Made by a program: the position numbers and the translations under genes
The notes under the pieces: model-generated
What the model saw: only the letters and a program-made list of their open reading frames with translations
Database searches by the model: none
What the model was told of the DNA's origin: nothing
In this document: positions 3,299 through 4,279 of the stretch, in pieces
How positions within the stretch are numbered: the stretch's first letter is position 1
Layout of the letters: each line of letters begins with the position of its first letter
Assembly: GCF_000027125.1 (NCBI RefSeq)
Contig: NC_017626.1
DNA from: Escherichia coli 042
GTDB lineage: Bacteria > Pseudomonadota > Gammaproteobacteria > Enterobacterales > Enterobacteriaceae
Reading direction: 5' to 3' (one strand)
Length of the DNA: 64,000 bases

Positions 3299-4279
3299 AT
3301 GTCTGAACTTATTGCAACTGCCGCTTCCAGCATTAACGCTTTTACTCTGGCAAAGCGTGTCGCCGCATTTAACGTGCCGGTGCTCATTCAGGGCGAAACC
3401 GGTGCGGGCAAAGAGTGCGTGGCGAAATATATTCACTCCGTAGCCTTTGGTGAAAACGCGCCCTATATCGGCGTGAACTGCGCGGCGATCCCGGAAAATA
3501 TGCTGGAAGCGACCTTATTTGGCTACGACAAAGGCGCATTTACCGGCGCAATTGCCAGCGTACCAGGCAAAATGGAACTGGCGAATAACGGCACCTTATT
3601 GCTCGATGAAATTGGCGATATGCCGCTGGCGCTACAGGCCAAAATATTACGCGTATTGCAGGAACAGCAGGTTGAGCGATTAGGCAGTAACCGACAAATT
3701 AAACTCAATTTTCGCCTGATTGCCTGCACCAATAAAAACCTTGAGCAGGAAGTCGCCGCCGGGCGTTTTCGTGAAGATCTCTATTATCGTCTGGCGGTTA
3801 TTCCTATTACCATGCCGCCGCTGCGTGAACGCCTGAACGATATTATCCCGCTGGCAGAGTCATTTATTAAAAAATACTCCACAGTGCTGGTGAAAAATAT
3901 CACCCTTTCAGAATCTACTCGCCGGGCGCTGCTCAATTACCGCTGGCCCGGCAACGTGCGCCAGCTGGAGAACGCCATTCAGCGTGGAATGATTTTAAAT
4001 CGCGACGGCGTGATTTTCCCGGATGCCTTAGGCCTGCCGGAAATAGACGTTGCCGATCACAGTGAACTGCAATGGCCTGTTCAGCCCTCCGTATCTGTTG
4101 CGGAAACCAGCGATTTAGGCCAGGCCGGACGTAGCGCCCAGTATCAATATATCGCCGACCTGATGCGTAAATATCAGGGCAACCGCAGCAAAATTGCCGA
4201 CCTGTTAGGCATTACCCCGCGCGCACTGCGCTATCGACTGGCCTCCATGCGCAAGCAAGGTATCGAAGTTTTCTCCTGA
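3299..4279 (+). CDS. lafK: Sigma-54-dependent transcriptional activator, AAA+ domain plus C-terminal HTH, no receiver domain
   Basis: Walker A GETGAGKE at residues 32-39, GAFTGA motif (residues 79-84, sigma-54 contact), Walker B LLLDEIGD, C-terminal HTH (IADLLGITPRALRYRLASM); protein begins about 30 residues before Walker A. Confidence 0.88.
   Translation: MSELIATAASSINAFTLAKRVAAFNVPVLIQGETGAGKECVAKYIHSVAFGENAPYIGVNCAAIPENMLEATLFGYDKGAFTGAIASVPGKMELANNGTLLLDEIGDMPLALQAKILRVLQEQQVERLGSNRQIKLNFRLIACTNKNLEQEVAAGRFREDLYYRLAVIPITMPPLRERLNDIIPLAESFIKKYSTVLVKNITLSESTRRALLNYRWPGNVRQLENAIQRGMILNRDGVIFPDALGLPEIDVADHSELQWPVQPSVSVAETSDLGQAGRSAQYQYIADLMRKYQGNRSKIADLLGITPRALRYRLASMRKQGIEVFS

Follow-up and report, generated by a model that had tools for sequence, protein, structure and literature searches.

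The Flag-2 (lateral) flagellar cluster of Escherichia coli 042 contains a gene for a short sigma-54 activator, and this raises two questions: is the protein naturally short or truncated, and how is an activator of this kind controlled? We address both in a 64,000-nucleotide stretch of the chromosome, here called the window. The open reading frame at 3299..4279 on the plus strand encodes 326 residues plus a stop codon, with the same start and length as in the RefSeq annotation. It is lafK, the known regulator of the E. coli Flag-2 system, and the gene goes by that name in strain 042 (PMC6993521). In Vibrio, LafK is the sigma-54-dependent regulator of lateral flagella (PMC4481668; PMC3930126).

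The domains and motifs of the protein are the following.

3314..3808, plus strand: sigma-54 interaction (AAA+) domain, residues 6-170 (Pfam PF00158, Sigma54_activat, E 1.7e-64)
3392..3415, plus strand: Walker A GETGAGKE, residues 32-39, read from the sequence
3533..3550, plus strand: GAFTGA sigma-54 contact loop, residues 79-84, read from the sequence and conserved in alignments
3824..4030, plus strand: AAA+ lid domain AAA_lid_14, residues 176-244 (Pfam PF25601, E 1.1e-19)
4142..4243, plus strand: Fis-type HTH (HTH_8), residues 282-315 (Pfam PF02954, E 7.3e-9)

The architecture is thus a sigma-54 AAA+ domain, a lid and a Fis-type HTH, and the Pfam search of the 326 residues finds no receiver or other N-terminal domain. 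A preliminary description of this DNA had the protein begin about 30 residues before Walker A and consist of the AAA+ domain and a C-terminal HTH alone; 31 residues are in fact found before Walker A, which starts at residue 32, and apart from the lid, Pfam adds nothing to that composition. In two alignments G32, G35, G37, K38 and E39 of Walker A are invariant, as are D103 and E104 of Walker B. Together with the GAFTGA loop and the C-terminal HTH these are the hallmarks of a bEBP, and judged by its motifs LafK is an intact one, with every catalytic and sigma-54-contact motif preserved. The lack of an N-terminal signal domain is what defines the receiver-less "type Ic" bEBPs (PspF, HrpR, HrpS). 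The receiver-less architecture is already on record, as LafK has been grouped with PspF and HrpRS as a protein without a signal domain (PMC3162934). However, Vibrio LafK has a degenerate receiver, so this class suits the enterobacterial LafK better than the Vibrio one. The E. coli Flag-2 locus and its LafK were reportedly described in 2005.

The alignments suggest where the short protein comes from. LafK is 50% identical to P. aeruginosa FleR and to Vibrio LafK, 41% to FleQ and 35% to PspF, and the best solved relative of its AAA+ domain is that of V. cholerae FlrC (4qhs, E 1.7e-76). The HTH bears the signature LGITPRALRYRLASMR, which FleR, FlrC and Vibrio LafK have in common with it. A neighbour-joining tree, which carries no support values, was also made of the LafK relatives. 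By sequence, LafK belongs to the FleR/FlrC lineage and not to that of PspF. Residue 1 of the E. coli protein aligns to residue 123 of Vibrio LafK, so the enterobacterial protein can be seen as an N-terminally deleted LafK of the FleR/FlrC lineage; its receiver was probably lost before the enterobacterial Flag-2 systems diverged. We suggest, with a probability of about 0.7, that LafK is an intact bEBP of the FleR/FlrC/LafK lineage that lost its receiver ancestrally, and whose output is set by the amount of LafK acting through three promoters.

These three promoters are of the sigma-54 type, and each has one copy of a common inverted repeat on its 5' side.

15514..15533, plus strand: inverted repeat GGAAATAAAACTTCCGCCTG, candidate LafK enhancer, 46 bp before the TGGCAC of the lfgB promoter
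15580..15595, plus strand: sigma-54-type promoter TGGCACAGCGATTGCT before lfgB, kept in strain 118UI, other Escherichia and Pseudocitrobacter
28939..28958, plus strand: inverted repeat GGAAACGTCATTTCCGCCTG, 35 bp before the TGGCAC of the lafB promoter
28994..29009, plus strand: sigma-54-type promoter TGGCACGCCTTTTGCC before lafB (FliD)
13971..13990, minus strand: inverted repeat GGAAACGGATTTTCCGCCTG, 35 bp before the promoter of the methylase-like operon
13920..13935, minus strand: sigma-54-type promoter CGGCACGCTTATTGCA before an operon for a lysine-N-methylase-like protein and a glycosyltransferase

The exact pattern TGGCAC-N5-TTGC occurs twice in the window against 0.31 expected, both times before a flagellar operon, and the repeat has three exact copies where 0.61 would be expected even with two mismatches allowed. 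Because the 10-kb flanks of the Citrobacter and Hafnia lafK genes stop short of lfgB, conservation across genera was assessed by a DNA pattern scan, which shows all three promoters, each with its repeat, to be conserved between genera. The composite of repeat and promoter is found in 11 stretches in 100,044 species genomes; ten of these belong to Flag-2 loci, where they precede lfgB, lafB or the methylase-like gene, and the remaining one is from Enterobacter sp. kpr-6, whose LfgA is only 42% identical. Since the copy before lfgB lies within the start of the lfgA coding sequence, selection on the protein may account for some of its conservation. The common inverted repeat is likely to be the LafK enhancer, and it offers a concrete and cheap handle on LafK binding and on the target genes.

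The proposed mechanism is then simple. Since no inhibitory or phosphorylation-dependent domain is present, LafK would be constitutively active, assembling and hydrolysing ATP whenever it is made. Its HTH would bind the inverted repeat GGAA(A/G)-N5-(C/T)TTCC-GCCTG, 35-46 bp 5' of the three sigma-54 promoters, and LafK would thereby activate lfgB (rod, hook and basal-body genes), lafB (filament cap onward) and the flagellin-modification operon. Output would follow the amount of LafK, which would be fixed by the long AT-rich upstream region and weak translation signals rather than by phosphorylation. Receiver-less bEBPs, whether natural (PspF) or made by deletion (NtrC1, DctD), are constitutively active. 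However, phosphorylation of the receiver helps NtrC-type relatives to assemble, and an activator that has lost its receiver is therefore not bound to be active. Constitutive activity under the control of expression level or of a partner protein, as proposed in the preliminary description, is plausible in view of this anatomy.

Control after translation is the strongest of the alternatives, although we consider it unlikely: LafK would be gated by a partner protein that acts as an anti-activator, as PspA, HrpV and FleN do, or through a small ligand such as c-di-GMP bound to the AAA+ domain. Known receiver-less bEBPs are held in this way, PspF by PspA and HrpS by HrpV, and the Flag-2 cluster contains open reading frames without assignment that could encode a partner, e.g. 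24833-25810, which has no Pfam match. In V. parahaemolyticus, LafV represses surface-sensing genes with LafK present (PMC9303241). The AAA+ domain of FleQ, a protein with a divergent receiver at its N-terminus, is a binding site for c-di-GMP (PMC7288161); however, in the alignment neither of the two FleQ c-di-GMP motifs is conserved in LafK: the LFRS position lies at or ahead of the LafK N-terminus, and KECVAKY stands in place of KExxxRN.

The elements around lafK are as follows.

2060..2911, minus strand: lfiM (FliM-like), first gene of the divergent lfiMNPQR-lfhBA operon
2912..3298, no strand: divergent intergenic spacer between lfiM and lafK, 387 bp, AT-rich, with no consensus sigma-70 or sigma-54 promoter
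3078..3168, no strand: BIME of 91 bp, an inverted-repeat structure of two REPs in opposed orientation (3080-3113 and 3131-3166)
3182..3255, no strand: block of about 75 bp kept between E. coli and Citrobacter, candidate lafK promoter/operator
3221..3223, plus strand: TAA, the first in-frame stop 5' of the lafK start, read from the sequence
4294..4635, plus strand: lfiE (FliE), 14 bp past the lafK stop

The genes lafK-lfiEFGHIJ read as a single operon. The spacer before them had been described as about 390 bp long, AT-rich and REP-filled. Length and composition hold (387 bp; 43% GC against 53% in the window, and 38.5% once the REP block is removed), but a single 91-bp BIME takes up just about a quarter of it. 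This block has the imperfect palindromes of about 35 bp and the many intergenic copies typical of REP/BIME elements, with a median of 32 copies per genome and presence in 5425 of 5426 complete E. coli genomes. The spacer contains neither a sigma-54 promoter nor a LafK-type inverted repeat; as it also lacks a consensus sigma-70 promoter and the ATG has no evident Shine-Dalgarno sequence in front of it, expression of lafK may be very low or conditional.

Weak signals of this kind could also belong to a gene in decay. That the short lafK is a remnant with no current function, in a cryptic and degrading Flag-2 cluster, nevertheless appears improbable to us. The lfgC gene in the window is frameshifted by a 2-bp insertion, GC at 16015-16016, so the LafK regulon cannot build a flagellum in E. 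coli 042, and enteroaggregative E. coli has been reported to carry a Flag-2 cluster that does not function (PMC4481668). Flag-2 systems are also reported to have lost genes or to have been deleted en bloc (PMC6993521), lafK is kept in 1277 of the 5426 complete E. coli genomes, which makes Flag-2 a cryptic second flagellar system in roughly a quarter of them, and besides the missing promoter and ribosome-binding consensus the regulatory spacer holds a mobile REP block whose order varies between alleles. However, lfgC is free of the insertion in the alignment with strain 118UI and in the 14 rows listed, where it is annotated flgC with no pseudogene name. All LafK motifs are intact, the three promoters and their repeats are kept across genera, and Flag-2 is reported to be expressed in Yersinia enterocolitica (PMC11420993). 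The dN/dS of lafK lies between 0.03 and 0.12, both among E. coli alleles and against Citrobacter, and values this low between alleles show that the gene is real.

The short form is, moreover, general. Non-chimeric LafK orthologues of 57% to 100% identity are all 324-365 residues long with an identical Pfam set, and the gene order lfiM / lafK-lfiE-lfiF-lfiG is preserved in Citrobacter and Hafnia. The short LafK is fixed across Enterobacterales under strong purifying selection, which settles the first question in favour of a naturally short protein over a strain-specific truncation. Three apparently long forms with 68-71% identity (P0051, 463 residues; P0066, 462; P0077, 521) were rejected as short-contig chimeras. 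In each of them the N-terminal part, which is a receiver in P0051 and P0066 and an ACT domain in P0077, comes from a different regulator and is joined to the LafK C-terminus at the conserved FREDL.../PPLRER motif; the fusion partners include E. coli NtrC and TyrR.

A receiver encoded further upstream would have spoken against the preliminary description, but the spacer has no receiver-coding capacity and no alternative start that would supply one. Reading back from the lafK start, the frame is closed by a stop after 78 bp with no ATG, GTG or TTG on the way, which leaves room for no more than 25 additional residues. Stops crowd all three frames of the spacer, and no open reading frame longer than 43 residues is present in the spacers of Citrobacter (594 bp) and Hafnia (641 bp). 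A tblastn search with MotY_L and the N-terminus of Vibrio LafK as queries gives nothing above noise, either in the window or in the spacers of E. coli, Citrobacter and Hafnia (E at least 0.3 in these spacers); no remnant of the receiver or of MotY_L is seen. Likewise, five receiver and two FleS/FlrB-like kinase queries retrieve no stand-alone receiver and no such kinase from the 64-kb window by tblastn at E up to 0.1. The idea that the start is mis-called, with a receiver upstream behind a non-canonical start or frameshift or supplied in trans, draws on the N-terminal domain of Vibrio LafK and on the longer Citrobacter and Hafnia spacers, which could once have housed one, but against these results its chance is negligible and it is refuted as far as sequence can show.

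Comparison with known systems places LafK more precisely. PspF of E. coli has the same two-part architecture, with 35 residues before Walker A against 31 in LafK, and LafK 4-233 aligns to PspF 8-239, so that the N-termini are nearly level. The likeness to PspF drawn in the preliminary description is thus apt for architecture and N-terminal boundary, but not for kinship: the two are only 35% identical, and LafK stays below both NCBIfam PspF equivalog cut-offs (239.5 against 443.55 bits for TIGR02974, 206.6 against 529 for NF008622). FleQ and FlrA, the flagellar master activators that respond to c-di-GMP, are sigma-54 activators like LafK, with 39-41% identity to it, but their HTH is of a different type.

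FleR and FlrC are two-component flagellar class III activators. FleR of P. aeruginosa and FlrC/FlaM of Vibrio and Aeromonas are 47-50% identical to LafK and have in common with it the position before fliE and the HTH signature. However, they carry a canonical receiver (DD, Asp, Thr, Lys) and adjoin a kinase, FleS or FlrB, while E. coli LafK has neither a phosphorylatable receiver nor an adjacent kinase. A tblastn match from Aeromonas caviae was rejected as a LafK, as it is the polar FlrC adjoining FlrA and FlrB, and it served only as a comparator with a canonical receiver. The place directly 5' of fliE-fliF-fliG is taken by the genes for FleR, for Vibrio LafK and for each of four distant short homologues.

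In Vibrio and E. coli alike, lafK is divergent from fliM_L and directly 5' of fliE_L-fliF_L-fliG_L, the place that characterises the LafK orthologue group, and the proteins are 48-50% identical from the AAA+ domain to the HTH, with a common HTH signature. However, LafK of V. parahaemolyticus and V. campbellii has 444 residues against 326, and motY_L, which precedes the Vibrio gene, is absent in E. coli. Alignment with Vibrio LafK, FleQ and PspF had been proposed as a check on the domain boundaries; it agrees with the short AAA+-HTH form for E. coli, but Vibrio LafK itself is not short. Its residues 1-122, absent from the E. coli protein, form a degenerate receiver that scores 22.3 bits against the full Response_reg profile, below the cut-off of 30.2, with Ser at the phospho-acceptor position and Arg replacing the conserved Lys. 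Full-length LafK-like matches have 436-521 residues, mostly 437-468, and the receiver-like N-terminus of the LafK-like proteins from Vibrionaceae and related gammaproteobacteria is lacking in E. coli LafK.

It can be speculated, tentatively and with more doubt than conviction, that all this reflects the stepwise decay of the receiver in an orphaned FlrC-type regulator, with the input moved to lafK expression and a novel proximal enhancer at the three promoters. First the kinase would have been lost, leaving a receiver that still has its Asp (the Aeromonadaceae-type LafK); then the phospho-acceptor would have disappeared (Vibrionaceae), and finally the domain would have been deleted together with motY_L (Enterobacterales). 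Similar receiver losses could have occurred independently at the fliE-proximal position in other gammaproteobacteria, and the signal input would have shifted to the control of lafK expression, perhaps via the ToxR-like membrane regulator LafZ of the cluster. Under such a decay the inverted-repeat enhancer would be previously undescribed and unusually close to its promoters. From the canonical FlrC through the LafK with a pseudo-receiver to the receiver-less LafK, these proteins would form a natural series in which a two-component regulator becomes an activator controlled by its expression.

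The gene under study is lafK; it belongs to cluster 1 of Flag-2, the lateral-type flagellar locus. In the RefSeq annotation, flhA, flhB, fliR, fliQ, fliP and two FliM/FliN-family genes lie on the minus strand, divergent from a plus-strand gene for a "sigma-54 interaction domain-containing protein" that is followed by fliE, fliF, fliG, fliH, fliI and fliJ. The order described for cluster 1 of E. coli 042 is lfhAB-lfiRQPNM-lafK-lfiEFGHIJ (PMC6993521). Across 2700-4400 the window matches the strain 118UI chromosome and about 60 other genomes, complete ones included, at 100% identity. 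Of 5426 complete E. coli genomes, 1277 carry the gene; most of these have a 328-aa allele, separated from the 326-aa protein of the window by a two-residue indel. The majority of E. coli alleles add DN or EN after FGEN, at 3452-3457 (LafK residues 52-53), in the loop past the Walker A helix; the 326-aa allele is the rarer one (62 genomes at at least 99% identity). Identity to 118UI is ~95% from at least 9740 onward, against 100% across the lafK region, and across 9700-15600 the top identity to any complete E. coli genome is 95.3%. Either the locus is a mosaic, or its lineage is unrepresented.

As the preliminary description had it, LafK starts about 30 residues before its Walker A box (31 by count, compared with 35 in PspF) and consists of the AAA+ domain and a C-terminal HTH alone, with no N-terminal domain found by Pfam in the 326-aa protein:

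3299-4279, plus strand: lafK, ORF of 326 aa
LafK residues 6-170: Sigma54_activat (Pfam, E 1.7e-64)
LafK residues 32-39: Walker A, GETGAGKE
LafK residues 79-84: GAFTGA
LafK residues 176-244: AAA_lid_14 (Pfam)
LafK residues 282-315: HTH_8 (Pfam)

The protein is naturally short, not truncated. Non-chimeric full-length homologues down to 57% identity have 324-365 aa and the identical Pfam set. Their sources include Citrobacter, Leminorella, Enterobacter, Atlantibacter, Scandinavium, Pseudescherichia, Siccibacter, Budvicia, Pantoea, Hafnia and Regiella, and the shorter entries are partial sequences. The gene has the same position in Citrobacter and Hafnia; the AT-rich spacers upstream of it there measure 594 and 641 bp and contain no ORF longer than 43 aa. 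The dN/dS of lafK is 0.03-0.12 among E. coli alleles and 0.03-0.04 between E. coli and Citrobacter, a comparison in which dS is saturated. The constant short length, the same neighbourhood and the low dN/dS mark the short form as a conserved, selected architecture. Three longer matches among public metagenome proteins (P0051, P0066 and P0077) were rejected as assembly chimeras, in which E. coli NtrC, E. coli TyrR or another regulator is joined to the LafK C-terminus at conserved motifs of bacterial enhancer-binding proteins (bEBPs); such entries could misguide surveys of domain architecture.

Among solved structures, LafK is closest to V. cholerae FlrC (AAA+ domain, 4qhs, E 1.7e-76), followed by FleQ (about 1e-65) and PspF (about 1e-54). 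LafK is 50% identical to P. aeruginosa FleR and to Vibrio LafK (48% in a separate alignment), 47% to A. caviae FlrC, 41% to FleQ, 39% to FlrA and 35% to PspF, and it stays below the cut-off of every NCBIfam equivalog, that of PspF included. The C-terminal motif LGI(S/T)PR(A/T)LRY(K/R)LA is common to E. coli LafK, Vibrio LafK, FleR and FlrC but is not found in FleQ or FlrA. Further, P. aeruginosa fleR, after fleQ and fleS, lies directly before fliE-fliF-fliG, i.e. in the position of lafK. The best structure, the identities, the HTH motif and the fliE-proximal position thus place LafK in the FleR/FlrC lineage; the likeness to PspF proposed earlier holds for architecture and not for kinship.

Four other short homologues, more distant (336-368 aa, 44-48% identical), likewise have fliE-fliF-fliG-fliH-fliI directly downstream; they belong to a Steroidobacteraceae genome, a Pseudomonadales MAG and two other assemblies (loci L011-L014, gene at 4001 in each). 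At L012 a short histidine kinase adjoins the receiver-less activator. In the L014 protein the receiver is reduced to a tail (DFFLSPMDPELLL), and flhA and fliF are fragmented in that cluster. In a neighbour-joining tree without support values the four are scattered among receiver-bearing FleR/FlrC relatives, while enterobacterial LafK forms one clade beside receiver-bearing Aeromonadaceae-type and Vibrionaceae LafK. P. shigelloides reportedly carries a FlaL-FlaM fusion in which the FlaM receiver is likewise missing (PMC7526173). Receiver loss recurs at the fliE-proximal position in unrelated gammaproteobacteria, and by parsimony we infer that the enterobacterial form was derived by loss.

Vibrio LafK itself is not short. 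In V. campbellii, on a replicon that was submitted as a plasmid, oppositely oriented fliM_L is followed by motY_L, the sigma-54 activator (L008:3635-4969, 444 aa), fliE_L, fliF_L and fliG_L; motY_L is absent from the enterobacterial locus. Residue 1 of E. coli LafK aligns to residue 123 of Vibrio LafK, end to end with 48% identity. Residues 7-113 of Vibrio LafK cover the full Response_reg profile at 22.3 bits, below the cut-off of 30.2 bits. Where NtrC and FlrC carry the acidic DD(D) motif, the aligned pseudo-receiver has EPN; its phospho-acceptor position is occupied by Ser and that of the conserved Lys by Arg, and it lacks the conserved Thr. The Asp and Lys are retained in one Aeromonadaceae-type and one Gallaecimonas homologue (P0375, P0378). 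The full-length hits have 436-521 aa, mostly 437-468, and represent Vibrionaceae, an Aeromonadaceae MAG, Pseudaeromonas, Gallaecimonas, Thalassotalea, Thalassomonas and Marinobacter. A Pfam-based survey, citing a Vibrio paper, groups LafK with PspF and HrpRS as having no signal-recognition domain (PMC3162934); the sub-threshold receiver score may explain this listing.

The divergent lfiM-lafK spacer (2912-3298, 387 bp) is indeed AT-rich, with 43% GC against 53% in the window and 38.5% without the REP block, but it is not REP-filled as had been described: a single BIME takes up a quarter of it.

3080-3113 and 3131-3166: REPs of the 91-bp BIME

The block occurs in 5425 of 5426 E. coli genomes, at a median of 32 occurrences per genome. 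The REP order at 3060-3180 is reversed relative to three other E. coli alleles (L003, L004 and L005, about 1260-1385), with a nearly constant spacer length (387 vs 386 bp), and looks like alternative deletions out of a longer REP array. Neither a sigma-54 site, nor the repeat described below, nor a consensus sigma-70 promoter was found in the spacer. There is no purine-rich Shine-Dalgarno sequence at 3281-3298 (TATATCGTTCACCCTATG), likewise in Citrobacter, which suggests weak translation initiation. A ~75-bp block at 3182-3255 is kept in Citrobacter (L006 2735-2805), where about 190 bp extra separate it from the ATG; the remainder of the spacers is unalignable, and the block is a possible lafK promoter or operator. 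These features fit a class-I gene governed via its own expression, in agreement with the Vibrio fliM_L operon, which is reported not to be LafK-dependent (PMC3930126).

The candidate targets of LafK come from a weighted consensus scan of the window, whose three top sigma-54-type sites each face a Flag-2 operon. The same 20-bp element, GGAAAY-N4-YTTCCGCCTG, lies upstream of all three:

15580-15595, plus strand: sigma-54-type promoter before lfgB; element at 15514-15533
28994-29009, plus strand: sigma-54-type promoter before lafB/fliD; element at 28939-28958
13935-13920, minus strand: sigma-54-type promoter before a 322-aa ORF (annotated as lysine-N-methylase in other genomes) and an 847-aa glycosyltransferase; element at 13990-13971

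Exact TGGCAC-N5-TTGC is seen twice against 0.31 expected; with one mismatch there is no enrichment (9 vs 7.9). The element has three exact copies, against 0.61 expected even at two mismatches, and is separated from TGGCAC/CGGCAC by 46 bp at lfgB and 35 bp at the other two, a difference of 11 bp or one helical turn. An A-tract directly precedes the -24 element at all three promoters. Strain 118UI, at about 95% identity in this part, retains the half-sites and promoters but has a different centre in the lfgB repeat. A scan of one genome per species over 100,044 species matched the composite (repeat, 30-50 nt, GGCAC-N5-TTGC) in 11 places. Ten belong to Flag-2 loci (Escherichia, Pseudocitrobacter, Citrobacter, Enterobacter) and in every case precede lfgB, lafB or the methylase-like gene; at one of these loci, in Enterobacter sp. 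kpr-6, LfgA is only 42% identical. The remaining one, from a Roseobacter MAG, probably matches by chance (rough chance expectation below one). The element is a likely LafK enhancer, with the caveat that its lfgB copy lies within the first lfgA codons. A palindrome like the half-sites (19657-19681, GGAAATCGACGTTCC), two mismatches from the full element, lies inside the ORF 19123-20034 (plus strand), with no sigma-54 promoter nearby. A further REP-like sequence (28846-28880, GCCGATGCGGCGTAAACGCCTTATCCGGCC) lies between the stop codon of the flagellin gene lafA, which it directly follows, and the lafB element and promoter.

PspF and receiver-deleted NtrC1 and DctD are constitutively active. By analogy LafK may be constitutively active as well, and its proposed function is plausible. 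Control by a partner protein or ligand is also conceivable; against a ligand, LafK lacks the c-di-GMP motifs of FleQ. Elsewhere in the cluster, LafZ (26594-27487, minus strand) has an OmpR/ToxR-type winged helix (Trans_reg_C, 41-113), one predicted membrane span at about residues 170-190 and a C-terminal domain past it; as a ToxR-like one-component regulator, LafZ may supply the Flag-2 cluster with signal input.

A decaying remnant is supported for the Flag-2 system of this strain. In lfgC (15970-16403), the gene for the FlgC rod protein, a 2-bp insertion (GC, 16015-16016) that 118UI lacks shifts the reading frame; the 14 matches listed for the region align over at most 859 bp of the 861-bp query, and none of the 1279 complete E. 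coli genomes with this region matches better than 98.3%. PMC7526173, too, has no LfgC among its E. coli 042 proteins. The apparatus is probably non-functional. However, the low dN/dS does not support decay of lafK itself. A receiver hidden upstream or elsewhere in the window is ruled out at the level of sequence: the nearest in-frame stop is a TAA at 3221 with no ATG, GTG or TTG between it and 3299 in the lafK frame, stops interrupt all three forward frames of the spacer, tblastn finds no relic of the Vibrio LafK N-terminus or MotY_L in three enterobacterial spacers and the window, and five receiver and two kinase queries find no match in the 64 kb.

The receiver-less nature of LafK is thus confirmed, and the interpretation first given to it is partly supported. 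It was already known in substance (PMC3162934, PMC6993521). LafK is a receiver-deleted LafK/FlrC and not a relative of PspF; the pseudo-receiver of Vibrio LafK and the common enhancer-like repeat are useful additions to a known type of system, not a new one.
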